This document shows, one piece after another, positions 16,309 through 57,231 of a DNA stretch of 64,000 nt. A program made the translations under genes and the position numbers. Source of the stretch: a virus. The notes beneath the pieces are model-generated. The model was not told the origin of the DNA. It did not search any database and saw only the letters and a program-made list of their open reading frames with translations. The DNA lies in the IMG/VR virus record IMGVR_UViG_3300036770_006434, positions 96,001 through 160,000 of that record, one strand, 5' to 3'. Position 1 is the stretch's first letter. Every line of letters begins with the position of its first letter.

Positions 16309-16332
16309 CAACTGAATAGACCAATTACTACC

Positions 16333-17837: not shown

Positions 17838-17846
17838 CCTCACTCT

Positions 17847-18266
17847 ATGCCCGCTTACGATTTTGAGAATCCAGAAACCGGAGAAGTCATTTCCGCCTAT
17901 ATCCCTTTGACTGCGCCTGACTCTGCGCGCCAGTTCCAAGTGATTGACGGCAAGACCTATAAGCGTGTCTACTCCTCGCCGCTGGCCGCCGTGGACCTAG
18001 CCACCCGTCAAGGAGATGGAACAAAGAATGACTTTTATCGCGTTACCACGGGTAAACGCGGCATGAAAGTCGGAGACCTTTGGGAAATCTCACAGTCCAT
18101 GAGCGATAAACGTAAAAACCTTATGGGCACGGACCCGGTCCACGAGGAATACTACCGCAATTACGAGAAGGAAAACGGCGAACGCCACTCAGACCTTGTC
18201 AAAAGGGAAAAAGCGGAAAAACTGAATGCCCGGCTGGCGGACATGGGGATCAAGATTAAAACCTGA
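17847..18266 (+). CDS. FmdB-like (Cys-less zinc-ribbon-like) phage protein
   Basis: N-terminus 'MPAYDFENPETGEV'. Confidence 0.5.
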   Translation: MPAYDFENPETGEVISAYIPLTAPDSARQFQVIDGKTYKRVYSSPLAAVDLATRQGDGTKNDFYRVTTGKRGMKVGDLWEISQSMSDKRKNLMGTDPVHEEYYRNYEKENGERHSDLVKREKAEKLNARLADMGIKIKT

Positions 18267-18267
18267 C

Positions 18268-18483
18268 TTAGCCGGGGTAAGCGCCCCTAGACTTCATGTC
18301 GGACACCCATTTTTTGCGATGCCCAGCTATATCCCAGTCCCACTTGGCGGTTTCATAACCCACATCGTAGCCAGCTTTTTCCGACATATACCATTTGTGC
18401 TCAAGGATAGCCTGTTTTTCCATCAACCAAGCCGTGTAAAGATTGGACCTTTCAATCGGGAACATCTCTCCGGTAGCGTTCAT
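18268..18483 (-). CDS. DUF4032-like small protein of the PVC-bacterial type
   Basis: 'SNLYTAWLMEKQAILEHKWYMSEKAGYDVGYETAKWDW...HRKKW' resembles recalled verrucomicrobial 'LYxEFLAEREEILRHKWIESEKAGHDIGFExALLDW...HR' proteins. Confidence 0.65.
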   Translation of the reverse strand: MNATGEMFPIERSNLYTAWLMEKQAILEHKWYMSEKAGYDVGYETAKWDWDIAGHRKKWVSDMKSRGAYPG

Positions 18484-19709: not shown

Positions 19710-22700
19710 ATGTCCCGCAAAAAGAAAATCGTTCTTTCCACCAACCCGCCTTGGCTCCACACCGGACTGGCGGAAAACGGTCGCTTTCTGGCACAATGGT
19801 TGTATAAGACCGGAAAATATGACCTCTCCTATTACTGCTCCCAGTCCAGTGTGGCGGACCCCAATCACGGGCGGCAACCTTGGAAGAGTCGCGGCTGTAT
19901 CCCGAACGACCCCAACATTATCCAACAGCTGAATCAGGACCAGAACCGCGCCAGAATGGCATCATACGGCGGGCTGCTCATCGGACAAGTGGTAAAAGAG
20001 GAACAACCGGACATCCTGTGGTGTTCGGACGACGCTTGGGCGTTCCCCGGAAACGAGTTTTTCAACGCCCCTTGGTGGAATAAAATCAATCCGATTCTCC
20101 ACATCACGGTAGACTCTCTCCCCATTCTGGAACAGGCGTATGATCAGGCGAAAGTGACGCCCAATTTTTTTACGTGGGCCAAATTCGGGTCCACCGAAAT
20201 GCGGAAACGTGGCCCGGAATGGGCGCATACCAAGCAGATTTACGGCGCGACGAATGTAAACAATTTCTCTCCGGTTTCAGCGAACGAGAAAGCGGAGTTG
20301 CGGCGACGGTTCGGTATCGGGCAGAACACACTGGTATTCGGATTCACGTTCCGTAACCAGTTGCGAAAAGAAGCGCTTTCCGTCCTTCGCGCGTTCCAAG
20401 AGTTTACGAAACTCCACAAAACGGTTGACGCAAAACTCCACCTGCACACGAGTTGGAGTGAAACCGCGAACGGATGGGACATCCCGAAGTTCATCAAACT
20501 CTTCGGTGTAAATCCCGAAAGCGTGCTCTGCACTTACGTTTGCAAAAACTGCGGGAACTGGCACATCTCCCCGTATCGCGGCGAGGATCAGAACTGCCCG
20601 TATTGCGGGGCGCAGAAGTCCATGGTAACCGCCAATATCAATCACGGTGTTCCGGATGAGGAAATGAAATATGTCTACGGCATCCGTGACGCGACAGTTT
20701 CCGCTTTCACCTCCGGTGGTCTGGAATTCGAGAACGTGAATACCCTCCTTTGCGGACTCCCGCTGGCCAGCACCAATTACTCGTGCGGTCAGGATTTCTG
20801 CGAGCAACCGTTTGTGACTCCTATCGACTGGCATTTCCGCAATGAGGCTGGCACCTCTTTCATCAAGGCCACCAACGATATCGGCTCCATCCGGAAGTTC
20901 ATGGAAAAGATTTCTGCCATGTCTCTTGCGAAACGTCAGGAAATCGGAGAAATCGGGCGGGATTGGGCGAAGAACACGTTTTCCATCGAGTCTATTGGGC
21001 CGCAGTGGGAGCAAGTTTTCGACGCTTTGCCGCCAAAAGATTGGTCCTCCATCTCCCTTACGCCGCCGCGCAAGAACGAGACTTATCCTATTCCCCAGAT
21101 TCAGGATGATCAAGCATGGGTGACGGCGCTGTATAACAATATCCTTGTCTGTCAGCCCGACCCCGATGGGCTCAAACACTGGATGTCCCAGCTGAAATCG
21201 GGAATCACGCGAGACGCGATCTATCAGTTTTTCCTCAAGATTGCCCGCGAGGACAACGCCAAGCTGGAGCCGCCGAAAGACTTCTCATCCCTGTTTGACG
21301 CAAATGATAGGAAGAAAATCCTCTTCGTAATGAAGGAGTCCGGCGGGGACCTGTTTATTGCCAGTGCCCTGTTCAAGGGACTGAAGGCTCTATACCCCGG
21401 AGCAGACCTATACGTTGGGTGCGAACCCAAATTCGCGGAAATCATTGCTGGAAATCCCTATGTTCACAAAATCCTGAGCTACCACCCGGCCATGGAGCAG
21501 GAACTGGTCATGCGCAACTACGTTGACCATTACTACTTCCCGGCGGTCCAGACGCAAAGACAACTCGGGTATCTGACCCGCAAGTTGACGCTGGCCCAGA
21601 CCTACGCGCACGCATCCGGCGTTGAGTTGGACAAACCTTGGATTCTGTCCACGTTTTTCCCGCTGGATCATCCGGTCGAAAAATCTATTCTGATCCACGC
21701 CTTTGCCGGGGCCACGGTAAACCAAAACGGGCAAATCCACGCCACGTTTCCGGCCAAAATCTACGATCACTTCAATGACGTGGTCCAGCTCCTGAAACCA
21801 ATCGCGGAATCTCTCGGCTACAAACTGTATCAGATCGGCGGACCCGGCGAACCCGGCTTGAAGGGAATAGAGTCTCTGGTCGGAAAAACGAGCATGCACC
21901 AATGCGCGTATCTGGTCAAAAACTGCGCGCTCCTTATCGGGAATGACTCCATGTGGGCTCATATCCGAGGGGGCGAAATGAAGCCACAGGTCCATATCTA
22001 TGGCTCAACTTCATCCCCTCATTTCCCACACTGGCGCGACCCCGAAAAGTCGTTTTTGATCGAGTCCCATCGCGGCGGCAAGAAACCCAGTTACGCGGCT
22101 GTAGAAACCCCCAAGACGATCAACTGGATCACGCCGGAAGAGATCGTGAATACGTCCCTCAAAGCGATTGGAGCTGAACGGCGCGTGACCCAGAAATCCA
22201 TTCTGTTCGGCGATGCCTACCATGTGGCAGCGGTCGAGCTTGTGCCCAACTGTATTGTCGGTCCACAAGTTCAGATGCCGGGACCTCTGGTGGTCAGAAT
22301 GGATTATGTGTCGGACGCAAAGGCGGCAGAGCCCCATCTCCTCTCCAATCTACAGATCAGGCCGTGCCTGATTATCACGGACAAGGAATTGGACCTGAAC
22401 CTTTTGCGACAGGCCAAGCCGAGGATCACAGCGTTGCGCGTAGAGGTTGACAAAGTAAGTCCCGAATGGGTCAAGCAGGTCAAAAAGATCGGTATCCCGA
22501 CGGCGTTTTTCTCATCGGAACAGGACCCCGAAAAACTCGCCAAGCTACGGTTGGACTATTACGATACCTGCGTTTTCGACCATTTTCAACCGCCTAAGAA
22601 AGAGGAGTTTGAAAAACTTGCGGCAACATACCTGAACAAATCTCTTGACGCAGGTGGCATACCTGCTAACCTAAGGTTTGCTACAAATAAATTCCTTTTA

Positions 22701-22841
22701 TCCGAAGGAAAGGTCTATCTGTCAAAGGCTCACTGGAAACTCGGCAAACACGCCGACAGCACAGAAAAAAATACCGATGACGTGATAGATTCTCCGGATT
22801 TCTGGGAAGAGTTTTCACACTTCTACATATACCAAAAATGA
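19710..22841 (+). CDS. Multidomain glycosyltransferase: GT4 (with Zn-ribbon insert) + DUF4214-like + GT9-like + C-terminal unknown domain
   Basis: 'GFTFRNQLRKE', 'CKNC...CPYC', 'FTSGGLEFENVNTLLCGLP'; 'WVTALYNNIL...PDPDGLKHW'; 'GGDLFIASALFKGLKALYP', 'LLIGNDSMWAHI'. Confidence 0.75.
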   Translation: MSRKKKIVLSTNPPWLHTGLAENGRFLAQWLYKTGKYDLSYYCSQSSVADPNHGRQPWKSRGCIPNDPNIIQQLNQDQNRARMASYGGLLIGQVVKEEQPDILWCSDDAWAFPGNEFFNAPWWNKINPILHITVDSLPILEQAYDQAKVTPNFFTWAKFGSTEMRKRGPEWAHTKQIYGATNVNNFSPVSANEKAELRRRFGIGQNTLVFGFTFRNQLRKEALSVLRAFQEFTKLHKTVDAKLHLHTSWSETANGWDIPKFIKLFGVNPESVLCTYVCKNCGNWHISPYRGEDQNCPYCGAQKSMVTANINHGVPDEEMKYVYGIRDATVSAFTSGGLEFENVNTLLCGLPLASTNYSCGQDFCEQPFVTPIDWHFRNEAGTSFIKATNDIGSIRKFMEKISAMSLAKRQEIGEIGRDWAKNTFSIESIGPQWEQVFDALPPKDWSSISLTPPRKNETYPIPQIQDDQAWVTALYNNILVCQPDPDGLKHWMSQLKSGITRDAIYQFFLKIAREDNAKLEPPKDFSSLFDANDRKKILFVMKESGGDLFIASALFKGLKALYPGADLYVGCEPKFAEIIAGNPYVHKILSYHPAMEQELVMRNYVDHYYFPAVQTQRQLGYLTRKLTLAQTYAHASGVELDKPWILSTFFPLDHPVEKSILIHAFAGATVNQNGQIHATFPAKIYDHFNDVVQLLKPIAESLGYKLYQIGGPGEPGLKGIESLVGKTSMHQCAYLVKNCALLIGNDSMWAHIRGGEMKPQVHIYGSTSSPHFPHWRDPEKSFLIESHRGGKKPSYAAVETPKTINWITPEEIVNTSLKAIGAERRVTQKSILFGDAYHVAAVELVPNCIVGPQVQMPGPLVVRMDYVSDAKAAEPHLLSNLQIRPCLIITDKELDLNLLRQAKPRITALRVEVDKVSPEWVKQVKKIGIPTAFFSSEQDPEKLAKLRLDYYDTCVFDHFQPPKKEEFEKLAATYLNKSLDAGGIPANLRFATNKFLLSEGKVYLSKAHWKLGKHADSTEKNTDDVIDSPDFWEEFSHFYIYQK
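22645..22672 (+). promoter_or_regulatory. Possible intragenic sigma70-type promoter for the downstream recombinase-like gene
   Basis: TTGACG-N16-TAACCT, overlapped by the inverted repeat GCAGGT-N5-ACCTGC. Confidence 0.35.
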
Positions 22842-24366: not shown

Positions 24367-25029
24367 ATGGCCAAAATGAACATGGCAGCCATAAAGGTGA
24401 CGGTAGCCCAAGATAAGAACGGGGTTATGAAAAAAGCTGCGCAAACCCGTGCGGAACAGGTATTTGAGGACGCTGTAATCGGTATGCAGATGGAGTTTGA
24501 GAATCACTCTGTCACAAAAGAGGTGGCCCAAGGAATTGGAGCCTCGAATATCAGCAAGACGCTTGGCGGCAAAGCGGCACCCAAAAACCTTTACTCATTT
24601 ATCGGGTTTGAGGCCAGTGAAAATGACCAGACGGGACCTATTCGAGACGCTCTTTCGCCAGACGACCCGGCGGGACCCAAGCTGAGGTATGGCGGTAAAG
24701 AAGTGATGTCTAATCAGAATGCCAGATTCAAATTCGAGATATCGGCACCCGACAAGCAGAGAATCTACAAAAACACCCCGATGCCTTGGGCTTCCGGCTG
24801 GAGCTGGGCGCAGAAGATAGAGACAAAAATCCCCGGATTCTCGCGGTTTCTCGCCGAGTTCATGGGCGACCCGTCGCGTTCAGGCGGCGGCGTTCAGATC
24901 AAAGGCCATGACATTAGAAGCGAAGAATACACCCCGCCAGACGAGGGGTATTTAACGACCATATTCCAGAACTTCTTGAACCGTGTCCGCCAGTATAATC
25001 GCGGCGGGTTCAGACGGAGATTCAAATGA
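24367..25029 (+). CDS. Putative neck/tail-completion protein
   Basis: Position between the head-closure-like and terminator-like genes; ATGTAAC variant at 24346. Confidence 0.4.
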   Translation: MAKMNMAAIKVTVAQDKNGVMKKAAQTRAEQVFEDAVIGMQMEFENHSVTKEVAQGIGASNISKTLGGKAAPKNLYSFIGFEASENDQTGPIRDALSPDDPAGPKLRYGGKEVMSNQNARFKFEISAPDKQRIYKNTPMPWASGWSWAQKIETKIPGFSRFLAEFMGDPSRSGGGVQIKGHDIRSEEYTPPDEGYLTTIFQNFLNRVRQYNRGGFRRRFK

Positions 25030-26162
25030 TAACGACCTCTTTTTCCAAGTCTGCTCTTTTGTCGTTTTTCGCTTGGTTGGACCATCAGCTCCTTCAGGAA
25101 GGACAGATGTATACCAATGCCAATACCCAGCTTTACAAGCAGACGAGCACGGACCCGGTTCTTGGAAACCAGTATACCACCTATTCGTCTCCTTTTCGGT
25201 CTCTGGTCTGGGATCAATCCGTGAGTGGCGCAAATCGGTTTAACGCCATTTCCGGCTACGTTTTCAACTCCTCTCAGTTCACCTCCAGCGGAGGCGACCA
25301 ACTGTATTCAAGCGTCATTTTTCCGCAAATCCCTGCCACCGGATATGGCGGCGCGTCTTTGCAGATGGACCTCAGTTTTCCAGCCTATATAACGGCCCCG
25401 ACCGGGACGGTGATATTGAGCGGAAACAGCGTCTTTTTCCCCGACAACCTGACGCAGACCACGGCAATCCGCTTTTCTGGTGCAAACTCGGGGGATTACT
25501 CGGACCTGATTGTATCCATCACGGGAACGGCCACCGTCATTTCCGGGGGCCAATATGGGATGCAAATGGACTTCCAAAACGGAAGAGTTATTGTCCCGAT
25601 AGACACTTTTCCCGCAACCTCTATTTTTTCAGGCTCTTACGCGATAAAGGACTTCAATCTGTATTTTGCCAATGGCGGCGCTGACCGCATGGTATTTACG
25701 AACAAACCCTATCTGAACAGTAGGTTTAACCGGGCAATGACCGGAATGCCTCCGCCCCATCAAAGAGTGACTCCAGCCATCTTCATCTCCACCCAAACCC
25801 TCAAGAATGAGCCAAAATCGCTGGGTGGCGGCTATATGTATGATACCGAAATAAAGGTAAAACTGGATGTTTGGGCGGAAACAGCGGGACAGCTGGAAAA
25901 CGCTCTATCCCTATTGGTAGACTCAAAAGACCTGTGTTTCCCCGAGATTTCGGAGTCACAGTGGCCGTTGGCCCCTACCGGCGACCTCAAATCTACGCCA
26001 TACAACTACGAAACGCTTTTTGACAGCCTATATACTCCATCAAACCTGTATAGCATCACAAAAGTCAGGTCTTCAAAATACGGGGACTCGGTTCCGATAG
26101 ATCAGTCAATTTTTGGCGGCAAGGTGGAATTAACCCTGCAAAGGACCCGCAGACTCAGGTAG
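25026..26162 (+). CDS. Virion neck/tail-terminator-like protein, paralog 1 (with an SG/TG-rich insertion)
   Basis: Aligns with 26185-27051 ('YLNSRFNR...TP.IF', 'WPL.P.GD.KS.YNY'). Confidence 0.55.
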   Translation: MITTSFSKSALLSFFAWLDHQLLQEGQMYTNANTQLYKQTSTDPVLGNQYTTYSSPFRSLVWDQSVSGANRFNAISGYVFNSSQFTSSGGDQLYSSVIFPQIPATGYGGASLQMDLSFPAYITAPTGTVILSGNSVFFPDNLTQTTAIRFSGANSGDYSDLIVSITGTATVISGGQYGMQMDFQNGRVIVPIDTFPATSIFSGSYAIKDFNLYFANGGADRMVFTNKPYLNSRFNRAMTGMPPPHQRVTPAIFISTQTLKNEPKSLGGGYMYDTEIKVKLDVWAETAGQLENALSLLVDSKDLCFPEISESQWPLAPTGDLKSTPYNYETLFDSLYTPSNLYSITKVRSSKYGDSVPIDQSIFGGKVELTLQRTRRLR

Positions 26163-26184: not shown

Positions 26185-27051
26185 ATGGCGAACACATCAT
26201 TCTCAACGATTACGCTGCTCTCCTTTGCTCAGTGGTTTACAAACAGATTGCAACAGGACGGTCAGGCGTATTTCAACACGACCAGCCGGCTCTACTATCA
26301 GCCGGATACCCGGTTGCCTGCGGGATATATCGCATACTCATCTCCTTTCAGGTCATGGGTTTATGATTCTGGTGTATCTGGCGCTGCGGTTTTGGACAGA
26401 ATCAGCGGCTCTCTAGGAGTCGGTGGGACAGGCTTCGTTTTGCGCGGCCAGTCCGGGCTACAGATAGACTACACAAATGGGCGGGTAATTTTCCCCTCTT
26501 CCGTTGGAACAAATGCCGTAATATCAGGGACTTACGCGGTTTCAGAGTTGAACACTTATTTCGCCAACCAAAGCGCGGAAAAGATGGTGTTTACCAACAA
26601 GTATTACCTGAACAGTCGGTTTAACAGGCCAATTACCGGTATTCCTCCGGCCAACGACATGGTCACGCCCTGCGTTTTTGTAACAAATCTTGGCGGCGAG
26701 AATGAGGGCCGAGCATTTGGCGGCCTCTACAACACCATGATGGATGTAAGACTCATAGTCATGGCTGAGACCATTAACCAACTGGAGGGAACACTATCTT
26801 TGGCTACCGACGCTACCGACGCCAATTTTCCGCAGTTGCCGCCATACCTGTGGCCCCTTGGACCGCTTGGAGATGTAAAATCCGGCTACAACTACCAAAC
26901 CATCAAAGAGGAGTATGGCCAGCCGCGCAACCTGTATACCATAAACGAGGTGACAGCGACAAAGGTCGGTGACAATCTGAAGATAGACGAGTCCGTTTTT
27001 GTCGGCCTGATAGACCTTAAAATAGAGCGGCCTCGTTCGATCCATGGATAA
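26185..27051 (+). CDS. Virion neck/tail-terminator-like protein, paralog 2
   Basis: Paralog of 25026-26162; located immediately upstream of the tube genes. Confidence 0.55.
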   Translation: MANTSFSTITLLSFAQWFTNRLQQDGQAYFNTTSRLYYQPDTRLPAGYIAYSSPFRSWVYDSGVSGAAVLDRISGSLGVGGTGFVLRGQSGLQIDYTNGRVIFPSSVGTNAVISGTYAVSELNTYFANQSAEKMVFTNKYYLNSRFNRPITGIPPANDMVTPCVFVTNLGGENEGRAFGGLYNTMMDVRLIVMAETINQLEGTLSLATDATDANFPQLPPYLWPLGPLGDVKSGYNYQTIKEEYGQPRNLYTINEVTATKVGDNLKIDESVFVGLIDLKIERPRSIHG

Positions 27052-41439: not shown

Positions 41440-42162
41440 ATGCAAAAGGAAGCGCAAATTGTCAAAATCATTCTGGGTGGGGCTCTTGGCCGGAAATTCG
41501 GCAAAGAGTGGAATCTGCGCGTGGGGTCTGTGGCGGAAGCCGTTCAAGCGATTGATGTGAATACGGGCGGCAAATTCAGGGGACACCTCTACAAAGAGGG
41601 TAACAAAAAATTCTACAAAATCGCGCTTGGCAGGAAGGATAATCTATTGGACAAAGAGGAGCTGTGCAATCCCAGCGGCAAGAACGATATATACATTTTG
41701 CCGGTAATCAAGGGTAGGGAAAAGGGGCTGACCAAGATACTGGCGGCAGTAGCGATTGCGGCAGTTACATATTTTACTTTTGGTGCTGGTGGATTTTTCG
41801 CAAACGCGGCGCTTGCAACAGCGGGATATAGCGCAGCCGCTTCATTGGCTATCGGTGGCATCGTCCAGCTCCTCACCCCAGTCCCGAACTTCAACCAGTC
41901 CCCGAGCCAAGACAGTTCCAGAGGTTCCAATATTTTTGCCGGCAACGCCGCTTCCGCCTCCCAAGGGGAAGGTGTGGCGCTGGTATATGGCCGCGCTTTG
42001 GTGGCCCCGACCCCAGTCTGTTTGTCGTTCTCTGCCGTGGATCAGCTAAACGTCGGCTCAGACAGTTACGCCACTCAGGAATACGATATAGAATACGGTG
42101 ACGGCGGAGTGGTCAACTACATCCCGCGCGCCCCGAATCCGGACGATAACGTTCCAAGCTAA
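41440..42162 (+). CDS. Tail assembly protein, lambda gpI-like
   Basis: 'IILGGALGRKFGK...SVAEAVQAI...ILPVIKG' ubiquitin-like N-terminus, Gly/Ala hydrophobic segment, 'QGEGVALVYGR'. Confidence 0.85.
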   Translation: MQKEAQIVKIILGGALGRKFGKEWNLRVGSVAEAVQAIDVNTGGKFRGHLYKEGNKKFYKIALGRKDNLLDKEELCNPSGKNDIYILPVIKGREKGLTKILAAVAIAAVTYFTFGAGGFFANAALATAGYSAAASLAIGGIVQLLTPVPNFNQSPSQDSSRGSNIFAGNAASASQGEGVALVYGRALVAPTPVCLSFSAVDQLNVGSDSYATQEYDIEYGDGGVVNYIPRAPNPDDNVPS

Positions 42163-45100
42163 TGGCCAACCAAGAAGCCCCGAATACCCTTCTGTCCAAT
42201 GGGACCCTGAAGATACTGGACCTTATCTGTGAAGGGCCTATTTCCGGCTTTGTCACCAAAAACGGTGTCTACGGATCGGACCCGTTGGTATCCACGTATT
42301 ACGATGATGTTCAGGTCAGGAATCTTGACGGCTCTTACAACTATAACGTCACAGGCGCAGGGTATTCCTTCAATTATACCCGTGGATACAGTTCCCAGAC
42401 CGGAATAGAAGGCTTCCAAAAGGTGGAGGCCGTCCTCCCGCTTTCTTCCAATACCCGTATTGCCAACCCGCCGGATGGAGCGGGTCCCTTTAAGCCCGTC
42501 ATCGTAGCGTTCAATTCCAATATGTTCCCGGATTCTGACTCTATTCGAGTTACGGTCCGGGTCCCGGCACTCATGGCGCAGGACGACGACAACAACACGA
42601 ATCCATTCGAGATTTTCTACGCTGTCGATATCTCCATAAATAACGGGGCTTTTGTCACGGTTGGAAACGAGTTCGTGCGCGGAAAATGCACGTCCGCATA
42701 CCAGAAGAGCACGCAATACCAGCTGCCTAAGACCACTCCGCCAAGCACTTTCTACGATTGGAAAGTCCGAGTTCGCCGCGTTTCCCAGAATATTCTGTCC
42801 ATCAGGACGCAAAACGAGATTTTCGTAGACTCAATCTCCGTAATCTCCACCAGTTTATACGCTTACCCGAACAGCGCGCTGGTCGGGACAGAAATCAACG
42901 CGGACCAGTTTTCTTCCATCCCCAGCCGCGCCTACGAGATAGCTGGCCTTCTGGTTAGCGTCCCTTCCGGATATACGCCGACCCAATATGGATACGACAC
43001 AACTCCATTCGAGCGAATCTGTGAATTTGACCAAAACAATCCCAATATAGGTTTGACGACGCAGTCCGAGTCTGAAATGGCCGGAATAGTCGATGGCATA
43101 ACGATTACAGGTTCCGGTATCCCCCCAAACACCACAGTCATAGATGTCAGCCAAGAGGCACCATGGGCCTTTGCCATAGACACACTTCCGCTAGAAACGG
43201 GACGGGAAATTCCCATCACTTTCTTCCCCACGGAAACCGTCCAGACAATAACCCCGGCCAGTTACCCGGCGGTTTGGGACGGAACCTTTGTGACCGGGGT
43301 ATGGACCGATAACCCAGCTTGGATTTACTACGACATTCTGACGAACCCCGTCCACGGGCTGGGAGACTATATCCAGTCTTCATATGTTGACAAATGGTCT
43401 CTCTACAAGATCGCCCAATACTGCGATGCCATGGTGGATGACGGAGCCGGTGGCCTCGAACCACGGTTTACCTGCAACACGGTAATCAAAGACCCGCAGG
43501 ACGCTTATACGGTCCTTCTCAATCTGGCCTCCACCTTCCGGGGAATGTTGTATTACACGAATGGTGGCATTCATGCATCCCAGAATCAGGACGAGCCGCC
43601 GGTTTACGCGTTCAACAACGCGAACGTGATAGACGGCGTGTTCAGCTACTCGGATACCGCGCGCGACGCCCGCGCGACCGTGGCCAAGGTCAAGTGGGTC
43701 GATCCCGACAACGGATACCGCGAAAACATCGAATACATCGAAGACATAGACGGAATCCTGCGTTACGGCTATCAGGAGAAGGAAATGACTGCCTTTGCCT
43801 GCACCAGCCGTGGACAGGCTTACAGACTTGGGTCTTGGACCCTTCAAACCGAGAGACTTCTCACCGAAACGGTCACATTCCAGACCAGCCTTGAAGGCGT
43901 GGCAGTGCGACCCGGCGACAATTTCGCGGTCTACGATAACTTCCGCAACAATCGGGCGCAGGCCGGTCGTATCACATCCTTCTCTCCCTCTCGCTCTTTG
44001 GTCTATCTGGACAGGTCCGTGGCCATAGAGCCCGACCAAGTGTATAGCCTGTCCTGTATTGTGCCGAAATACCAGCTGGACGGGTCAGGAGATGTCACGG
44101 GCTCCAGCCAAATCCAGTTTATCCGCCAGAGTCAGGTCGAGTCCTTCGCGGTTACCACGTCCGCTACCTCCGGCACCGATTTTCTGGTCATTGCCGGTTC
44201 ATTCTCGACCGGACTCTATCCCGGTAGCCCGTTCATTCTGGCTGCCTCCGGGACCGGTGCCAGTATCCTGAATCGGGCTACATTCTACACCTGTCTGGCC
44301 ACCGCCGAGGTGGAAGCAGGCAAGATAGAAGTCCTTGGCCTAAAGGCGGATACCGGAATCCAGTTCTCCATCCAAACGGGTTATACTGTGGTCGATTGGC
44401 CGGAAAACCCCGGCGACATTGATACGTCCATCCTTCCGCCGAGCAACCTTTTTGTAACCGGCGTCACTGGCGCAGACCTTAACAACGTCTTTTACTCCGC
44501 AATTCAGCTGACTTGGGTGAATACGCCCAGTGCGAATCTCGGCTACTACATAGTGTCCGGCAAGGAGTGGGACACGTCTTACGAAAGGTTCACGGTATCA
44601 AATACGGGATTCAATTTTACCCGTGGAGATTCTGGTTTTTACAACTTTAGAGTGGCAGCAGTCAGTTTTGGAGGCGTGGAATCTGATTTTATTACGGGCG
44701 GTTTTCTGGTATCTTCCCAAAACCCCATCGGCACTCTTCGCGCGCTTTCGGGGGTTAGGATACAGGACAATCCCGACCCGCTTTATGTCAATTCTGTCAC
44801 GGGATACACCGGTTACATCGGAATCAATCCCGGATTCCAGTGGGCTTCCGAAGAAGCGTCCAACGGACTGCCGATAGTCGATTACCAGTTTATCTCCGGT
44901 TATCGGGTTTCCGCCAAGAGTTTTGACGGTGCCACAACATATTACACGACCGATGTAAGCGGAAGGAGCAACACCTCTTTCCAGTTTACCGGAAACCTGT
45001 TGCGCGAATTTGCCGGTTCTCCCCGTGGCTTTGACTTCAGAGTCCAAACGATTGATTTATACGGCAATGTGGCGGACGGAGCCAACATCAAGGTAGACAA

Positions 45101-47066
45101 CCCGCCGATGAAGCCGCCGGTAGCCTCGGGCTTTGTCGGATACAATGGCGGCGTCATATACAGTATAACCCCAAGCGTTCAGTATGACACTTCCGGCGTA
45201 TATCTTTGGGTCGATACAAGCCCGTCTTTCACGCCGTCTTTCTCGAATTTCGATTACGTTTCCACCAATCTGGCGGGCAACGCGGAGATAGCGCCACAAC
45301 AGGGAACGTTTTACACATGGTTCTCTCTGGTGGACACGTTTTCCACGGCCGGCAATGCGATTTATGGACCGATTTCCGGTAATGCCGAGGGGATGTTTCC
45401 CACGACATTTAGGGATATATCAACGGAAATCGCGGCAGCAGACGCTGCTGTATCGGGTGCCTTCAATCTGATTACGGGACAGATTACGGATTATATCAGA
45501 ATCATTTCCGGGGATGCCTTGCTCGCCATTGATTCGGTAAACGCCCTTAGCGGCCAAGTCACAGGACTTCCGGGTGTCGTAAATACCGCCCTCAACGTTC
45601 GGGTTGACAGTATCGTGGTTACGGCCAGCGGCTCTCTGTCCGAACAAATTGATGCGGTCCGCGCTATTACGGAGCTGACCGGACAACAGTTGACGGCGCA
45701 GGTTTCGACCGTTTCTACGGCCCTAACAAATAGCGGCGTTGCCCTTGGAACCAGAGTGGACACCGTTCAGGCGAACGTGAACAGTCTTTCGGGATACACC
45801 AACGCGAGAGTGGATACAGTCACAACCGCCCTCGCCACGACGGGCGGGTCTCTTGCATCTCAAATCACAGAGCTAAGCGCTTATACTACCGGTCAGAGTG
45901 CCTCTATCAAAATAGCCGCCGAAGCCTTTGTGACAGGAGACGTAAACGGTCTCGGCGGCGCGGCCAAAGCGTCTTGGGGTTTTGAGCTGAACGCCAACGG
46001 CAAGGTCACGAGCATGGTTGCGACCTCGTCCGATACCTATGGTCAACCGTCCAGCTTCGGCACCATCGCTTTTGGTAACGCGGACCTTGAGTCAAACGAT
46101 TATGATCCGGGCGTTACCGGGTGGCAGATCAGATATGATGGCTCAACTGAATTTAACGATATCCAAGCTCGCGGGACATTACAGTCCTATTCGTTTACCG
46201 CTGGGTCTGCCGGGTGGAGAGTTCAGTCCAATGGCAACGCGGAATTCAATGATATATCGGCCCGAGGAGCGTTTACGGGAGGAGCTAGCGCAAATCAAAC
46301 CGCTATTGACGGAAGAGGTTTGACGGTAGGAACGTCAAGCTATTTTACACAATTGGGTGGAGGAGATGGATTTTTGCGTTTGGCGACACCAATTGCAAAT
46401 ACGATTACATTAAGCACCATCAATAATGGAGGGGTATACGCAGGAGATATATCCCTTTACAGTGAGTCAAGTCCATCAACACCAACAATAAACCTAAACG
46501 GCTTTAACGGAACAATATTTGGCCAAAAGTTGACAATTGAATCAGGTTCCAACAACGGTTCAATTCCACAAAACTACTTAGCCAAGATAATCCACAAAAG
46601 CAATTCCACTAACCGTTACGGTCTTGCTGTAGCCACCAATTGGCAGGCTGCTGAAAATAAAATCTTTGTCGCTGGATCGTGCGATGCGTCGGCTGGCAAT
46701 TTCCTAGAACGTTTCACCATCTACGGTGAAGGCACCGTTACCAACTCCGGCACCATCAACGCCGCCTCATTCAATACCACCTCCTCAATCCGATACAAGG
46801 AAAATGTTCAAGATTTCGATAACGCTTTGGGCGTTGTGGAATCCCTCCGCGGCGTCACCTTCGATTGGAAAACTGGACACGTCACAACCGGCCACGACTT
46901 CGGGCTAATCGCCGAAGAGGTCGCCGCAGTGCTGCCAACCGCCGTTAGCCGCGACCCCGGCGGTCTAATCCGAGGCGTAGACTATGGCAGACTCAGCGCG
47001 GTTTTGATCGAGGCAGTTAAAGAACTCCATCATGAAGTGAAAGAACTTAGAAAAATAAAGGGGTAG
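42162..47066 (+). CDS. Central tail fibre/tail-tip protein, lambda gpJ-like, with a C-terminal peptidase S74 chaperone domain
   Basis: 'WDGTF...WTDNPAWIYYDILTN...DKWSLYKIAQYCD...EPRFTCN', 'FACTSRGQAYRLG', a fibronectin-like region, coiled-coil repeats, and 'SSIRYKENV...GLIAEEV...VDYGRL...EAVKEL'. Confidence 0.92.
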   Translation: MANQEAPNTLLSNGTLKILDLICEGPISGFVTKNGVYGSDPLVSTYYDDVQVRNLDGSYNYNVTGAGYSFNYTRGYSSQTGIEGFQKVEAVLPLSSNTRIANPPDGAGPFKPVIVAFNSNMFPDSDSIRVTVRVPALMAQDDDNNTNPFEIFYAVDISINNGAFVTVGNEFVRGKCTSAYQKSTQYQLPKTTPPSTFYDWKVRVRRVSQNILSIRTQNEIFVDSISVISTSLYAYPNSALVGTEINADQFSSIPSRAYEIAGLLVSVPSGYTPTQYGYDTTPFERICEFDQNNPNIGLTTQSESEMAGIVDGITITGSGIPPNTTVIDVSQEAPWAFAIDTLPLETGREIPITFFPTETVQTITPASYPAVWDGTFVTGVWTDNPAWIYYDILTNPVHGLGDYIQSSYVDKWSLYKIAQYCDAMVDDGAGGLEPRFTCNTVIKDPQDAYTVLLNLASTFRGMLYYTNGGIHASQNQDEPPVYAFNNANVIDGVFSYSDTARDARATVAKVKWVDPDNGYRENIEYIEDIDGILRYGYQEKEMTAFACTSRGQAYRLGSWTLQTERLLTETVTFQTSLEGVAVRPGDNFAVYDNFRNNRAQAGRITSFSPSRSLVYLDRSVAIEPDQVYSLSCIVPKYQLDGSGDVTGSSQIQFIRQSQVESFAVTTSATSGTDFLVIAGSFSTGLYPGSPFILAASGTGASILNRATFYTCLATAEVEAGKIEVLGLKADTGIQFSIQTGYTVVDWPENPGDIDTSILPPSNLFVTGVTGADLNNVFYSAIQLTWVNTPSANLGYYIVSGKEWDTSYERFTVSNTGFNFTRGDSGFYNFRVAAVSFGGVESDFITGGFLVSSQNPIGTLRALSGVRIQDNPDPLYVNSVTGYTGYIGINPGFQWASEEASNGLPIVDYQFISGYRVSAKSFDGATTYYTTDVSGRSNTSFQFTGNLLREFAGSPRGFDFRVQTIDLYGNVADGANIKVDNPPMKPPVASGFVGYNGGVIYSITPSVQYDTSGVYLWVDTSPSFTPSFSNFDYVSTNLAGNAEIAPQQGTFYTWFSLVDTFSTAGNAIYGPISGNAEGMFPTTFRDISTEIAAADAAVSGAFNLITGQITDYIRIISGDALLAIDSVNALSGQVTGLPGVVNTALNVRVDSIVVTASGSLSEQIDAVRAITELTGQQLTAQVSTVSTALTNSGVALGTRVDTVQANVNSLSGYTNARVDTVTTALATTGGSLASQITELSAYTTGQSASIKIAAEAFVTGDVNGLGGAAKASWGFELNANGKVTSMVATSSDTYGQPSSFGTIAFGNADLESNDYDPGVTGWQIRYDGSTEFNDIQARGTLQSYSFTAGSAGWRVQSNGNAEFNDISARGAFTGGASANQTAIDGRGLTVGTSSYFTQLGGGDGFLRLATPIANTITLSTINNGGVYAGDISLYSESSPSTPTINLNGFNGTIFGQKLTIESGSNNGSIPQNYLAKIIHKSNSTNRYGLAVATNWQAAENKIFVAGSCDASAGNFLERFTIYGEGTVTNSGTINAASFNTTSSIRYKENVQDFDNALGVVESLRGVTFDWKTGHVTTGHDFGLIAEEVAAVLPTAVSRDPGGLIRGVDYGRLSAVLIEAVKELHHEVKELRKIKG

Positions 47067-47829: not shown

Positions 47830-49107
47830 TCAGGCGATTGTCACTGTCAGGTCCTGAGTGTCGGAACCGTCTGCGGCGATAATTCTGACCACCACGGTGC
47901 CAGCCGCATCCGTAACATAGACGTTATTGGCCGCCAAGAATGCGGGGCCGCTCAGAATTACCAGATAGCACGCTTGGTTCAGATCAAAGGTCAGCGGCGA
48001 AGAGCCGGATACATAGTCTACCTGCGGGAAAACGATAGAGGTATAGGACACCTGCTCCGAGAGAATGTAGAAATTCGGGTCAGCCACGCCCACTCGCGCA
48101 ATATCATTTATTTTCAACGACCAGCTGAATGACGCTTGAGCCACGCCTCCGCCGACGCCAATTCTGAACGAGGAACTGTCCAATTTGGCACCCCTGAATA
48201 GGAACGCGAAATCGTCCAGTCCGGCGCACCCGGATTTGAATCCCAACCTGAATGCATACCCGCTGTCCGGGCAATTCACACGGGTCAAAGCATCGTATTG
48301 AAACTGGGTTAACCGTCCCTCCGCCCGTATATTCACGTTTACGGGCCACTGGATCGGCCTTTCGTCGGGATAGGCCCACCCCAAATCCTTAACCTCGGCT
48401 CTCGGCAAATCCACCGTAAAGCCAAATGACTCTATGGGGCACGAGTTATTGCCGCTCAAAAGAGCGCCTACCGCGCTACCGGTGTCAAAAGTGAGCTGAA
48501 TAGCAGAGGGCGCGGCCTCAAAGTAGTTTGTGACAGATTGAGATGGAACCGGCAATGCGTATACCCCTGTTACGCCTATGCCGCTCTGTTTGTAGACAGC
48601 GGGAAGCACTTGGCCGCTCCCGCTGGGTTGTATAAGCAGGTTTAGACCGTCCAACGAGACGGATATAGCGCTGGGCTGCCCGACTGCGGCGCTAAAGTCG
48701 TAACGCGTAATCACCGCATTGCCGACCGCCATTACGCGGCAATCCGGGTCTATGTAACCCGCCGAATCCCGGCCATTCTGGTTTATCAGCAGGTAGTAGT
48801 TTCTCTCCTGATTAAGTCCTGCAATAGCGGAAACGGTGCCGGACGGAGACGATACAAAGCCTATGCTTGTTTCATTTACCCCTGACCCGAATATCCAAGA
48901 CAAATCCACGGTGGCCCGGGGTCTTTGGATCATCTGGCGGTCCCCGCCGCCGTCCCAGTAAAAATTATCCTCCCTAGGATAGATCAGAGCCACATCCGCG
49001 TTGGTCACCCCCTGCAACGTCTGCGTCGCCAACTCCTCAAATGCGGGCGAGTAAGGGCTGGTCGAACCGACCAAAGCGGAAACGACGTTGAATTGGAAGG
49101 CGCTCAC
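47830..49107 (-). CDS. Third tail-tube paralog, located at the end of the head operon
   Basis: 'VDLSWIF...RNYYLLINQNGRD...VMAVGNAVITRYDFSAAVGQP' versus 28162's 'MDLSWNV...KNYFLAISQQGID...VLAVGNGFISNYTFNAAVGQV'. Confidence 0.75.
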   Translation of the reverse strand: MSAFQFNVVSALVGSTSPYSPAFEELATQTLQGVTNADVALIYPREDNFYWDGGGDRQMIQRPRATVDLSWIFGSGVNETSIGFVSSPSGTVSAIAGLNQERNYYLLINQNGRDSAGYIDPDCRVMAVGNAVITRYDFSAAVGQPSAISVSLDGLNLLIQPSGSGQVLPAVYKQSGIGVTGVYALPVPSQSVTNYFEAAPSAIQLTFDTGSAVGALLSGNNSCPIESFGFTVDLPRAEVKDLGWAYPDERPIQWPVNVNIRAEGRLTQFQYDALTRVNCPDSGYAFRLGFKSGCAGLDDFAFLFRGAKLDSSSFRIGVGGGVAQASFSWSLKINDIARVGVADPNFYILSEQVSYTSIVFPQVDYVSGSSPLTFDLNQACYLVILSGPAFLAANNVYVTDAAGTVVVRIIAADGSDTQDLTVTIA

Positions 49108-50136: not shown

Positions 50137-51084
50137 TTATGCCGCCTTTAACCTGTAGCATCTTGGAGAAAGGTCTCTTTCTGGATGGATAATGTTGCCA
50201 TTTTGGTCAAATTTAAGCAAAAACTCATCCTTGAACACTTCTGGCCTGATATCTTTTTTGCGCTTTACGTTTTTCAGTATCTCTTCATTTTCCCATTTTC
50301 TCTTGAACTTTGGGGTTGGAAGCGACTTGAAGAAGTCGAACATATGGACGCAACGATTGCCCGTTACCATATAAGACCAACATTCCTTGTCTTTTATCTT
50401 TACAACATTGGCCTTAAATGGATTTTTTTCTGATCCAAAATGCGCGTCAACAAACGATTTGATCCACTCTAAAATTTCTTTAGACGCAGAAGATATGCTT
50501 ATAGACGAACTTTTTTCGGTAAAAGATATAGAGCCATCTCCATCAAGATAGCCCAAGATAAAACACGCCTTCAACAAATCTCTATCAAGATTTGGTGGCG
50601 CAATCCTGTAGGTTTTTTGAGGAAACAGATTGAAGTTTTTATACATATCCTGATTCCATTTTTCAGCTGAATTTATCTGCAACTGGACGATGTCTCCGCC
50701 ACCAAATAGACTATGTTGTTTGTATATTCTTGTTTCACCTGTAAATTCACAATGTTTTATAAAATTATCAATTTCTTTTTTATCTTTATGATTAAGCGTT
50801 ATTGCGATAAAATTGTTTTCCCAATTAACCGTTCCATCAGCGGCCCAAAGACCCGCATAGTAGCTGTTGATAGGATTTGGAACTGCCCAAAAATCTTCGT
50901 TTTTGGAGTATTTCCTTAGTTCAAATTGCGATTTCAAACCTAGTCTACCAGCCTGAAGGCAAACGGAGTCCCTGCTTCGCCCCAAAATCATTCCAATAAT
51001 AGCGAAAGTTGCAAAGCCCTCTTTGAGCAATGCTTCTAGCGTGATAATCTCTTCAATAGTCCACTTTTTTCTTTTGTGTCCCAT
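50137..51084 (-). CDS. Free-standing double-motif LAGLIDADG homing endonuclease
   Basis: 'SYYAGLWAADGTV' and 'CFILGYLDGDGSI'; strongly AT-rich; inserted after the MCP terminator. Confidence 0.88.
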   Translation of the reverse strand: MGHKRKKWTIEEIITLEALLKEGFATFAIIGMILGRSRDSVCLQAGRLGLKSQFELRKYSKNEDFWAVPNPINSYYAGLWAADGTVNWENNFIAITLNHKDKKEIDNFIKHCEFTGETRIYKQHSLFGGGDIVQLQINSAEKWNQDMYKNFNLFPQKTYRIAPPNLDRDLLKACFILGYLDGDGSISFTEKSSSISISSASKEILEWIKSFVDAHFGSEKNPFKANVVKIKDKECWSYMVTGNRCVHMFDFFKSLPTPKFKRKWENEEILKNVKRKKDIRPEVFKDEFLLKFDQNGNIIHPERDLSPRCYRLKAA

Positions 51085-51161: not shown

Positions 51162-52280
51162 TTACCAGACTAGGGCGCAAAGACCCTTGCCATCAATGCC
51201 CACGCGACCTTCGCGCTTTTTAGCGTAGAAGCCGATTTCCTCGGCGCGGTTGCTGAACTGGTTATCTGCAAGGACGCGCATTTGTGAGCCATCGTCCGGA
51301 TTGCTCTCGGACAGAACGGCCAGACTCTTGACGCGCTTGTTGACCGCATACACGACCTGCTCGGAGCCGGGCGAGAAAGCGACCGCAGTGCCGTTATTGT
51401 AACCGGCATACGTGCGGGCACCAGCCGCGCTGGCGAACAGGATGTTATACGTTTCGTTGATACCCATGTTATACACGGTGACCAACTCCATGCCGTAGAT
51501 CGAGGGGTTCGGAGCGGCGTAGATGTCGTCACGGAACTTGTCCGAACCCGGGATGCGGGTAACGGTGTTGCCAACCGTATTCAGGGGCTCGAACGCCATG
51601 TTGCGGATTTGCTCACCGAACTCCGGCGAACCGACCAGCGTGGTGATCGAACGCGAGGCACCGGCAGGCGTGCCGCCAACCCACGAGGAGTTGATGCGAG
51701 CCATGATGCGCTCAAGAGCGCTGATGTCCTGAGGGACAACCGTGCCCTGCGTTTTCGAGCGATACACCTGATAGGTGTCCGTGCCACGCAGCTTGTAGGT
51801 CGTCTGGGCGGTCATGGTCGAGAGGATCGCGGCAGAGTTGACTTCCGTCTTGACGAGGAAGTTCTGGGCGAGATGCTCAAGATAGGCGGCCAGAACGTCC
51901 ACGCGAGCGGCGCGGATGAAGTTCAGGGGCAGAGCGACGGCACCTTCGATGCCATAGGTCATGACCGGCATCTCGGACACGTCAACGTTCGTGGAGGTCG
52001 CGAGACCACCCGGACGGGACTGCGCCCAAGTGCGGACGAAACCGGCGTCTTTGATGTCAAACAGCGGGGCCAGCGGGATCGTGCTCGGCGTGCCGTAGTC
52101 GTAGGTATAAGGGGTGAAGAGCTGCTGGAGAACCGGCGCGCTTTCAATCACCTGAAGGATGGGCTCGGTGATGTAGGCCGCGAAAGCGTTGCGCGCTTTG
52201 ATGGCTTCCATGATGTCATCCGACGCCATGGCGCGGAGAAGCGCCGCATTCTTTTTGGTCTTCTGGATTTCGATATTCAT
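51162..52280 (-). CDS. Major capsid protein
   Basis: 372 aa, strong codon bias, position after the protease/scaffold and decoration genes, strong terminator, AGAAAGGAA upstream. Confidence 0.8.
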   Translation of the reverse strand: MNIEIQKTKKNAALLRAMASDDIMEAIKARNAFAAYITEPILQVIESAPVLQQLFTPYTYDYGTPSTIPLAPLFDIKDAGFVRTWAQSRPGGLATSTNVDVSEMPVMTYGIEGAVALPLNFIRAARVDVLAAYLEHLAQNFLVKTEVNSAAILSTMTAQTTYKLRGTDTYQVYRSKTQGTVVPQDISALERIMARINSSWVGGTPAGASRSITTLVGSPEFGEQIRNMAFEPLNTVGNTVTRIPGSDKFRDDIYAAPNPSIYGMELVTVYNMGINETYNILFASAAGARTYAGYNNGTAVAFSPGSEQVVYAVNKRVKSLAVLSESNPDDGSQMRVLADNQFSNRAEEIGFYAKKREGRVGIDGKGLCALVW

Positions 52281-55096: not shown

Positions 55097-57217
55097 TTAC
55101 TGGTCTTCTCGGGTGTTGAGAGAAATGGAAACGAAGTTAGCGGTAGAGGAGGCCGTTCTTGCGGCGGCCGTTACCCATTCTCCGGGCTGTAAATCAAACC
55201 CCAGCTCGTTGATGTCGATAGACTCTTGGCCCAATTCGGCAATGGATATGGAGAACAAGAGCTGAGAATTGTCCCTGATAGTCGCCGTGGTCGCAGAGTT
55301 GTCGTATAAAGCACAGGAGTTTGTCGAGTATTGCGAAAAATTGGGGTTTCCCGCAAGATCGGCGTTTTTAAGCAGATAAATTGTAACCGGCTGAGTATGT
55401 TTGACGCTGGCGTTAAGGTTGATCAGATTGATGACGCACTGATTTGTTTTACCCTTGAAAGTGAGGGAGTTTTTGATTGTAAACAGCGCCCTAAAGGCGG
55501 ACGCAGTGACCGCCGAAGATGATTCTTGATATGTGAATGGGGGTCCATTCAGCTTTTTCTGCCCTTCGATAAATCCGGCGAAAGACGCTGTGGATAACTC
55601 CAGATTGGTCGTGCTTCCGTAGGAATAGGCAGATGCCGTAAAGGGGAACGACGGATTCCTGAAGTTTGGAGCCGTATTATTGTTGGGATACCTTACCGTG
55701 TGGACGCTGACCCAATCGGCGTTGTTCCCATTTGCGGCAGACTCAATCTGAAAATTCAAGATACCGTAACCCAGAAACTGATAGCCGATTTGATATACGT
55801 TACCCTTTGTGGTATCGAGGGTTACGGCACTATACCCGGTGCCGTTCATGGTGTCGCCATTCCATTGCGATTGAGGCGTCCAGTTTTCTATGGCCAAAAC
55901 TCCCGAGCGCGTTTCCGAGAAAGTGCCGGCGGCATTTGTAGATAGACCGCTGAACAGGAACGGGGCATTTTGGGGACCTGCGGCACCAGCCAAAAACACC
56001 ACGCCGGACCCAACGGACTGCGCGGTCCAACCAGTGTAGATTCCGGTCGAAATCTCGTATGCAGTTCTGAGGGTATTGGCAGAATTGCTGAGTTGAATCG
56101 TGTGCGGGACGTTGTTCAACACAATCGTGGCGTTGCCGGCCACCGTTGCAGAAGCCGAAAGAGTGAGGGTTTGGACTTCCCGCACACCCGCTCGGGCATG
56201 AAGAATACCGAAGTTTTGACCGCTATATCCGAAATAGATTCCATCTTCCGCGTGACCTATGCCGGCGACTTGGAACGAGTTAGCCACACCCGATGTGAAT
56301 TTCGCTGTAAACCGCGCGACTGCACCCTGACCGGGTCGGTAACGAAGTCTCTTTCTGGACTGAAGGGTAGCGTTGCCGCCAACGGACGTGTTTGTCCTCA
56401 TGACAAACTGTGCGTTTTCCTCGACTATCACGCCGCCAAGTCCGGTGGTTGCCCTGACCAAAATATCGTTTATTCCATAAACCGCATCGACTTGGAATAT
56501 GGGCAAAAGATTCTCTGTATGGACCGAGCCAAAGGGGTTGATAGGACCATGGATGGCCGCCTCCAAATGCCCCTCATTTGTAACGGGCACATTCACGTAT
56601 GAACCGTTTTCCACGCTACCCATCAGAACGCTTCTGGTAACCGTGGCGTCTGCGTCGGGCTGGACGCGGCTATTCAGCGTAGATGTAAGGATATTTTGAG
56701 AGCCAAAAAGAGTGGTAAGTCTCAGATAACCTTGATCATTTGAACCATTTGTATACACGGTTCGGTAGTATGGACGCGTGATAGACAGGCGATGGACCTC
56801 GTTGACGCCCGATTCTACTGTAAAACTCAGGGAACTGTCCCAGTTCACAGCATCCGGCGAGAACTGCATGTGCAATGTCCCGTCCGCATCCGATTTCGCC
56901 GCCACAATGACAGAAGAGTATTTCGATATGCTCTCGGATTCCCCGGTCCAAGCCTGATTGGACAAAAGCGCTCCGGTCGTATTGTTGAAAGACGAAACTG
57001 TGTTTACAGGAACTCCGGCCCCGCTTATCGCGAGGCTTAGCCCCTCCACGCCGACATCGCTGATTCTAAGCGGTCGAAACGCTCCGGTAGACGTGTTGCC
57101 GGCGGCGTTCTCCCAGACCAGACCGGTGTCATGAACATATTGTATTCCCGGCGCGATTCGCTGGAATCCTATAACGCTCTGGAAAAAGGGGAGTTCAGGG
57201 CTGGATATATTGGACAT
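55097..57217 (-). CDS. Putative virion structural protein (beta-rich, lectin/jelly-roll-like)
   Basis: S/T/G/N-rich; 'LQSRKRLRYRPGQG...RFTAKF...GIGHAEDGIYFGY' pattern recalled from phage minor structural proteins; between portal and protease. Confidence 0.5.
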   Translation of the reverse strand: MSNISSPELPFFQSVIGFQRIAPGIQYVHDTGLVWENAAGNTSTGAFRPLRISDVGVEGLSLAISGAGVPVNTVSSFNNTTGALLSNQAWTGESESISKYSSVIVAAKSDADGTLHMQFSPDAVNWDSSLSFTVESGVNEVHRLSITRPYYRTVYTNGSNDQGYLRLTTLFGSQNILTSTLNSRVQPDADATVTRSVLMGSVENGSYVNVPVTNEGHLEAAIHGPINPFGSVHTENLLPIFQVDAVYGINDILVRATTGLGGVIVEENAQFVMRTNTSVGGNATLQSRKRLRYRPGQGAVARFTAKFTSGVANSFQVAGIGHAEDGIYFGYSGQNFGILHARAGVREVQTLTLSASATVAGNATIVLNNVPHTIQLSNSANTLRTAYEISTGIYTGWTAQSVGSGVVFLAGAAGPQNAPFLFSGLSTNAAGTFSETRSGVLAIENWTPQSQWNGDTMNGTGYSAVTLDTTKGNVYQIGYQFLGYGILNFQIESAANGNNADWVSVHTVRYPNNNTAPNFRNPSFPFTASAYSYGSTTNLELSTASFAGFIEGQKKLNGPPFTYQESSSAVTASAFRALFTIKNSLTFKGKTNQCVINLINLNASVKHTQPVTIYLLKNADLAGNPNFSQYSTNSCALYDNSATTATIRDNSQLLFSISIAELGQESIDINELGFDLQPGEWVTAAARTASSTANFVSISLNTREDQ

Positions 57218-57231
57218 AAAATGAAAGCCTC

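Follow-up and report, generated by a model that had tools for sequence, protein, structure and literature searches.

What selective pressure, if any, lies behind the frequent occurrence of a serine or threonine directly followed by glycine ([ST]G) in the central tail fibre of an environmental phage is the question raised by the locus described here. The window, that is, the whole stretch of 64,000 nucleotides that was analysed, spans bases 96001-160000 of an IMG/VR virus record (IMGVR_UViG_3300036770_006434; 190,671 bp) that has direct terminal repeats, and encodes a gpJ-type tail protein; in an initial annotation, this directional motif had been proposed to be enriched in exposed virion proteins in general and to act as the acceptor site of phage-encoded glycosyltransferases (GTs). 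A pronounced [ST]G excess is present in one stretch of gpJ, is conserved among its relatives and restricted to one phage group, recurs in unrelated distal tail proteins of that group and is accompanied by a conserved pair of GT-like genes. That the [ST]G sites of distal tail proteins are O-glycosylation acceptors is the explanation considered first in what follows, and we rate its probability as slightly under even.

The protein in question is the following:

42162..47066, plus strand: gpJ-type central tail fibre or tip attachment protein, 1634 aa, recognised by Pfam and tblastn.

Its assignment to the lambda-J-type tip attachment proteins is based on the hub domains (Pfam E-values of 2.6e-25 and 3.7e-20); the Pfam domains found are FNIII-A_GpJ (residues 124-228), Phage-tail_3 (444-605) and Peptidase_S74 (1541-1595; PF13884). 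The N-terminal half is ~30% identical to other J proteins, with tblastn matches in 2161 phage records, and in the relatives the J gene is preceded by Phage_min_tail, Phage_tail_L and NLPC_P60/JAB genes, in an M/L/K/I-like order.

Over the whole of gpJ there are 49 [ST]G and 30 of the reverse pair G[ST], with 30.6 expected, while residues 640-1259 (44079-45938 in frame; hereafter the J stretch) hold 35 [ST]G compared with the 14.4 expected, a ~2.4x excess, and only 12 G[ST]. The hand counts of the initial annotation (about 48 in gpJ, 35 in the stretch, 12 for the reverse) are thus reproduced, and those it gave for other proteins turned out to be exact: 13, 10, 12, 7 and 15 for a 378-aa tail protein, the major tube, a tube paralogue, the decoration protein and a 706-aa protein, 0 for the major capsid protein (MCP), and 6, 7 and 6 for TerL, the portal and the large GT. 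No dipeptides of the J stretch are more over-represented than TG and SG; 53% of its glycines are preceded by Ser/Thr, and the position before [ST]G is hydrophobic in 57% of the sites, against a background of 33%. An origin in chance, amino-acid composition or a bias at the DNA level is favoured by the richness of the stretch in the residues concerned (S+T 22%, G 10.6%) and by a mild asymmetry of [ST]G over G[ST] both genome-wide and in control phages (observed/expected ratio, O/E, 1.1-1.3); nevertheless, composition-keeping shuffles of the J stretch never attain the observed count (0/20,000 reach 35; z ~6.5), so that the enrichment reported earlier lies beyond chance. The sites are written with 19 different codon pairs, and therefore the signal is at the protein level; a DNA-level motif was rejected on these grounds and because the excess recurs in genomes of 35-53% GC. 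Such an origin is extremely improbable, and it is effectively refuted by these observations. NG and DG, the classical turn pairs, are not enriched, and often depleted, both in J and in the enriched tail proteins of its relatives (see below), which argues that the hydroxyl residue is important and that turn propensity by itself does not explain the motif.

The excess is unevenly distributed along gpJ, whose parts are as follows:

42162..44078, plus strand: J hub part, aa 1-639; no excess, 8 [ST]G vs 7.5 expected, O/E 0.91 over 60 homologues.
44079..44414, plus strand: beta-rich segment, aa 640-751 (~110 aa); 8 [ST]G vs 3.2 expected.
44415..45395, plus strand: three tandem fibronectin type III (FN3) domains, aa 752-1078; 15 [ST]G vs 7.2 expected.
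45396..45947, plus strand: stalk of tandem 15-19-aa units, aa 1079-1262; 12 [ST]G vs 3.7 expected.
45948..47066, plus strand: C-terminal part with the S74 intramolecular chaperone; no excess, 6 [ST]G vs 9.3 expected, and 11 G[ST].

Thus the hub of J, which is buried, and its receptor-binding/chaperone end are spared. In an AlphaFold2 (AF2) model of the J stretch, built on 39 homologues, the three FN3 domains are confidently predicted (pLDDT ~90, aa 750-1075), and the flanks, including residues 640-751 and the stalk, are of low confidence; for the stalk the model was left aside. The FN3 fold is matched by Foldseek with probability 1.00 to FN3 tandems of fibronectin, titin and contactin, the best matches being fibronectin Fn7B8, the titin FnIII tandem and the T5 tail-tip chains 7zhj_b/7zn2_f; fn3-family models of Pfam gave no match for the five sub-segments searched, even at E-values up to 10. 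In the FN3 model the sites fall at the starts and ends of strands, in part at equivalent positions across the three repeats (V-[TS]-G in strand A; xSG after strand C). In the stalk (about residues 1136-1260) each unit of 15-19 residues is closed by an [ST]G, which bears out the periodicity of 16-19 residues claimed in the initial annotation, and the spacing of 3-4 between hydrophobic residues, as read from the units, suggests a segmented helical stalk.

The sites are conserved in ~75 J relatives, down to 30% identity, and in all 60 homologues aligned (36-72% identity) the stretch exceeds expectation 2-2.5x, with no excess over the remainder of J. About 12 sites are 95-100% conserved; in particular, sites 646, 696 and 731 of the beta-rich segment are kept in at least 98% of the homologues, and the FN3 sites 769, 799, 863, 883, 912, 989 and 1011 in 95-100%. 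When the 29 column pairs with the motif in at least half of the family were masked, the O/E of the J stretch fell to 1.09, which is background; the signal thus consists of fixed sites and not of a floating density, and a floating sequon density in J, as would be seen in the density and turnover of a glycan shield, was rejected. This behaviour is what would be anticipated were the hydrophobic-[S/T]-Gly motif a purely structural element, at strand edges, beta-bulges or helix caps (a side-chain cap followed by a glycine of positive phi), fixed early in the building blocks of the fibre and multiplied by domain and repeat duplication, with the GT pair modifying, for example, DNA or the host envelope. 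Such a structural origin is a serious possibility, which on balance we doubt. It accounts for the confinement of the excess to ~29 fixed sites, for the residue specificity of S or T at many of them, and for the equivalent sites of the FN3 repeats and the single site of each stalk unit. Homology moreover links the stalk (J 1085-1290), at 24-31% identity, with the repeat stalks, rich in charged residues, found in J proteins of prophages and of Cyrano; the breaks in these are held by D-G, D-S and D-T, which also carry capping residues. Against a purely structural role stands, besides the lack of co-enrichment of NG and DG, the comparison with more distant J proteins.

An exhaustive, profile-free search of 1.8 billion representatives returned only 31 relatives of the FN3 tandem, and these fall into two classes: those of at least 30% identity, with a pooled O/E of 2.09 and 41% of glycines preceded by S/T, and eight outgroup J representatives of at most 29% identity, with an O/E of 1.05 and a corresponding value of 17%. 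Outgroup phages possess homologous FN3 tandems and stalks without the motif. Among characterised J proteins, [ST]G, G[ST] and expectation are about equal in those of lambda, Morganella, CUB19, Silvergun, Cyrano, L338C and RHph_Y2_11 (the last two being Rhizobium phages), and this holds also for their segments alignable with residues 640-1099; the motif is for the most part lacking in the corresponding columns, and a retained glycine follows S/T in some and A, D, V or P in the others. A generic property of FN3 domains or of J proteins is therefore unsupported, homologous outgroup domains showing no excess, and was rejected. The initial annotation had named the same enrichment in homologues from phages lacking GTs as one finding that would refute its hypothesis, and the absence of the enrichment from the seven characterised and the eight outgroup J proteins favours that hypothesis. 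A search for related loci with the J stretch alone gave no match.

The motif is not confined to J. Four relatives (G005, G010, G011 and G013) share TerL (37-46% identity), the portal, MCP, tube, tape measure protein and GT pair with the phage of the window, while J is absent from them and a different distal tail module takes its place; proteins of these modules carry directional excesses even larger than that of J, and the numbers of [ST]G in them and in proteins of two further members are as follows:

G005, 818 aa: 60 vs 20.1 expected.
G005, 527 aa: 24 vs 9.9 expected.
G010, four proteins: 48 vs 17.2, 40 vs 14.3, 31 vs 11.0 and 38 vs 16.9 expected.
G011, 702 aa: 46 vs 13.2 expected.
G013, three proteins: 103 vs 40.8, 37 vs 14.3 and 55 vs 30.5 expected.
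G008, 63148-65880, plus strand, 910-aa fibre: 57 vs 29.8 expected; almost wholly made of the J-type stalk repeat (J 1136-1260).
L108, 524 aa: 27 vs 9.3 expected.

Most of these enriched distal proteins are unrelated by BLAST to one another and to J. In the controls, represented by T4 (region 75-125 kb, with gp5-gp12 and fibritin), T5 (region 65-115 kb, with pb1-pb5), lambda, Morganella and prophage loci, no protein has a whole-length z>3; in windows of 300 residues, z>=5 is attained by 10 of 373 proteins in the group and by 1 of 116 in the controls. The latter is a 1024-aa protein (15295-18369, minus strand; 25 vs 6.8 expected) of contig L267, which carries the unenriched outgroup J P0077 and is too short for the presence of the GT pair to be judged, so that it is not a clean control. 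A structural origin has on its side the G008 fibre, built from the same stalk repeat, and the pb4 protein of T5 (FN3 domains and a spike), which is mildly high (19 vs 10.2) and has no known glycosylation; it is contradicted by the enrichment of at least eight BLAST-unrelated proteins of the group, when the fibrous proteins of T4, T5 and lambda are not enriched. Taken together, the restriction to one lineage, the recurrence across proteins, the directionality, the lack of NG and DG enrichment and the parts avoided speak for a selective pressure, specific to the lineage, on hydroxyl-Gly pairs, with the tail-linked GT pair as its most evident agent.

Within the phage of the window itself, the broader claims of the initial annotation fared less well. 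Once corrected for composition, the counts of the major tube (10 vs 6.9), the decoration protein (7 vs 5.0) and the 706-aa protein (15 vs 12.9) are unremarkable; the virion proteins other than J, when pooled, have 130 [ST]G vs 117 expected (O/E 1.11), the same as the genome background without J (589/536, ~1.10). A general enrichment in exposed virion proteins was consequently rejected, and the glycan-coated head and tail exterior that had been deduced from it finds no support in the MCP, the decoration protein or the tube. In the MCP (window 51162-52280, minus strand), 0 [ST]G and 9 G[ST] occur with 3.9 of each expected, which is not significant alone; its homologue in a relative has 2 [ST]G and 7 G[ST], an asymmetry opposite to that of the tail proteins. 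Modest excesses are found in two further tail proteins:

25026..26162, plus strand: 378-aa tail protein p25026; 13 [ST]G vs 6.3 expected.
47830..49107, minus strand: 425-aa tube paralogue p47830; 12 [ST]G vs 6.1 expected, and 12 vs 6.9 in a relative.

The former, absent from relative L023, is a paralogue of p26185 (26185-27051, plus strand; 44-49% identity) and carries an insert (aa 94-166) related to the C-terminal 70 residues of p47830; the latter is 30% identical to the major tube protein p28162. Searches of Pfam, PHROGs and NCBIfam gave no match for p25026, p47830, the MCP, the decoration protein or the tail proteins of G005.

If the motif is an acceptor site, an enzyme able to read it should be looked for among the products of the phage, and the candidate is the following:

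19710..22841, plus strand: 1043-aa fusion of a GT4-like/DUF4214 part and a GT9-like part, recognised by Pfam.
21579..22841, plus strand: GT9-like part of the fusion, aa 624-1043; AF2 model with pLDDT 94, compared by Foldseek.

The Pfam GT9 family PF01075 is matched with 32.4 bits (cut-off 22), only over residues 722-782, and DUF4214 is also found; the scores of the heptosyltransferase equivalog models of NCBIfam are far below their cut-offs for the fusion. The nearest Atlas clusters of the N-terminal 623 residues are viral proteins, 26-50% of whose members contain PF00534 (GT4-type), together with DUF4214. By Foldseek, the GT9-like part resembles the GT9 protein 3tov, RfaF (1psw), TibC (4rb4) and WaaC over one donor-binding Rossmann lobe, and a profile search of PDB sequences retrieved 1psw with an E-value of 3e-10; both matches span residues 79-182 of the query, approximately, and about 150-210 aligned columns. 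TibC ranks 4-9 in Foldseek (E ~1e-4), behind 3tov and 1psw, and was not found by the sequence search of the PDB. The build of this part is unusual, since its N-terminal donor-binding lobe (~aa 30-190) is followed by a confidently modelled alpha/beta domain of ~230 residues, for which no clear match was seen in the PDB. There are 108 standalone GT9-like homologues (~400-438 aa), most of which carry PF01075; in the relatives the two halves are separate adjacent genes, and among the phages examined the fusion occurs only in that of the window. The pair is located either at the start of the block of tail genes or within it. An upstream island contains two firm FkbM methyltransferase genes (window 2813-3526 and 4382-4927, minus strand; Pfam E ~1e-13). 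As for GT genes encoded by the phage, the GT9-like one is above threshold, and the GT4-like one and others are weak or below threshold.

Of the relatives, 20 could be assessed, and every one of them has the GT pair or at least its GT9 part: G001, G002, L023, L026, G005, G008, G009, G010, G011, G013 and ten contigs that were paired between the J and GT9 match lists because their lengths are identical; one contig of 219 kb carries GT9 in the IMG/VR scan and is unlisted in the metagenome scan. The contigs of the outgroup members P0077, P0078 and P0079 and of the in-clade P0074 were too short for GT presence to be judged and were left out; G012, which has no GT9, is cut at the tube gene and was excluded as a control. 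In L026 a homing-endonuclease gene separates the two halves of the pair.

The mechanism that may be proposed on these grounds is that hydrophobic-[S/T]-G would be under selection in those parts of distal tail proteins that project outwards, and that the candidate enzyme would be the conserved cytoplasmic GT4-like and GT9-like pair, encoded beside the tail genes and fused in the present phage. The pair would add the first sugar or sugars to exposed Ser/Thr residues at the edges of FN3 strands and at the breaks between helical stalk units; further elongation might fall to the glycan genes upstream. We infer that protein is the substrate of the pair, that it recognises [ST]G and that a glycan is present at all; the complete proposal, in which a group-wide GT4-like plus GT9-like pair O-glycosylates hydrophobic-[S/T]-Gly on the distal tail proteins of each lineage as a sequon-directed, phage-encoded system, is tentative, and its probability falls clearly, if not far, below an even chance. 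The acceptor role advanced in the initial annotation keeps the backing of the outgroup J proteins without excess, of the presence of the pair in 20/20 relatives and of the unrelated enriched tail proteins; it is weakened by the location of all of the J excess at ~29 fixed sites.

Several other observations, together with the background O/E left after masking, weigh against glycosylation. As regards the sites, many have specifically S or specifically T fixed (T in 59/60, S in 58/60), in a manner resembling packing or capping, and many lie at strand edges or periodic helix breaks, where a structural role is equally plausible; the counts are also not independent, and are inflated, because the FN3 repeats share sites and the stalk is a tandem repeat. 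The exposed proteins of highest abundance, namely the MCP, the decoration protein and the major tube, show no excess. As regards the enzyme, its likeness to GT9 is limited to one Rossmann lobe, Foldseek does not separate the protein-modifying TibC from the lipopolysaccharide (LPS) heptosyltransferases, and the neighbours of the FkbM genes, earlier called glycosyltransferases, have sub-threshold Pfam matches or none. The co-occurrence with the pair represents one evolutionary event and not independent evidence, because the pair is core to the whole group, and among the 20 assessable relatives none without it was found. Finally, no minimal [ST]G sequon was found in a limited literature search, and a glycan on the [ST]G sites is a prediction from sequence.

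The same lineage restriction and recurrence across proteins would equally follow from some other lineage-specific function of [ST]G, such as a different modification (phosphorylation), recognition by a chaperone during fibre assembly, or the binding of host polysaccharides by ridges of hydroxyls and glycines. The S74 chaperone domain of J and the numerous tail genes of the group that lack annotation agree with such a function; however, no candidate kinase or chaperone was identified, and apart from the GT pair no conserved enzyme genes were found embedded among the tail genes. We regard a function of this kind as unlikely.

To our knowledge, virion glycosylation by phage enzymes has so far been chemically shown only in mycobacteriophages, at the C-termini of capsid and tube proteins. 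In these virions, phage GTs glycosylate the C-termini of the capsid and tail-tube subunits, as chemically shown by Freeman et al. 2023 (as reported in PMC12619734). The two systems would be alike in the proposed modification, within the cytoplasm, of the structural proteins of a phage by GTs that it encodes itself; unlike the acceptor sites of the mycobacteriophages, the present ones would be ~29 [ST]G positions, fixed and internal, in the central fibre, as predicted from sequence. C-terminal acceptor sites of the mycobacteriophage type on capsid or tube are not what is observed here, given the counts in the MCP (0) and the tube (10 vs 6.9) and the location of the signal inside gpJ. A second comparison is offered by TibC and AAH, GT9-related cytoplasmic heptosyltransferases which hyperglycosylate the repetitive autotransporters AIDA-I and TibA on many serines (PMC4358343). 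A GT9-related enzyme and a repetitive, beta-rich surface target would be common to both cases, and the GT9-like part has TibC among its best structural matches; the match, however, covers one lobe (~150 aa, 20% identity) and is no better than that to LPS heptosyltransferases, and the phage protein differs in its additional ~230-aa C-terminal domain and its GT4-like partner. With lambda gpJ and T5 pb3-pb4, the present gpJ has in common a hub with the domains Phage-tail_3 and FNIII-A_GpJ, beyond which come FN3 domains and a distal fibre, whereas lambda J has no [ST]G excess and only T5 pb4 is mildly high. The prophage and Cyrano J stalks have the same segment rhythm as the homologous stalk of the window phage, but they are highly charged (E/R/D/A) and use D-G, D-S and D-T at their breaks, whereas the stalk described here is uncharged, S/T-rich and has [ST]G at every break. 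What would be new relative to the known systems is therefore the recognition, by a GT4-like plus GT9-like pair, of [ST]G sites that lie at fixed internal positions of distal tail proteins. If this proves true, phage glycoproteins could be predicted from sequence by a short acceptor motif, a specific enzyme pair would be named for testing, and the result would have implications for the shielding or tuning of the organelles by which phages recognise their hosts; should the motif instead be structural, it would represent a lineage-specific building rule for fibre domains, useful in modelling.

As for the setting, cultured phages are only distantly related to that of the window, its TerL being at most 29% identical to that of any record of the phage collection; at least 593 relatives of its TerL family are present in IMG/VR, most of them 38-41% identical, which makes the group an abundant one in environmental samples. 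It is composed of large aquatic siphophages of about 140-220 kb, and the host of the window phage is probably aquatic as well. The NCBI assembly GCA_040384425.1 contains two different members of the group, of 204.6 and 169.9 kb. Another large protein, of 1041 residues, is encoded beyond the limits of the window in a glycan island of the genome (G000 55191-58316, minus strand); its counterpart in G005 is two neighbouring genes (587 and 392 aa), BLAST shows no similarity between it and the 1043-aa fusion, and it may be a second fused enzyme pair. Homing-endonuclease genes (GIY-YIG, endonuclease/D5-like and LAGLIDADG) are dispersed in the structural modules of the phage and its relatives:

17049-17837, plus strand, window: homing-endonuclease gene.
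50137-51084, minus strand, window: homing-endonuclease gene.
1154-2125, L026: homing-endonuclease gene.
6849-7682, L024: homing-endonuclease gene.

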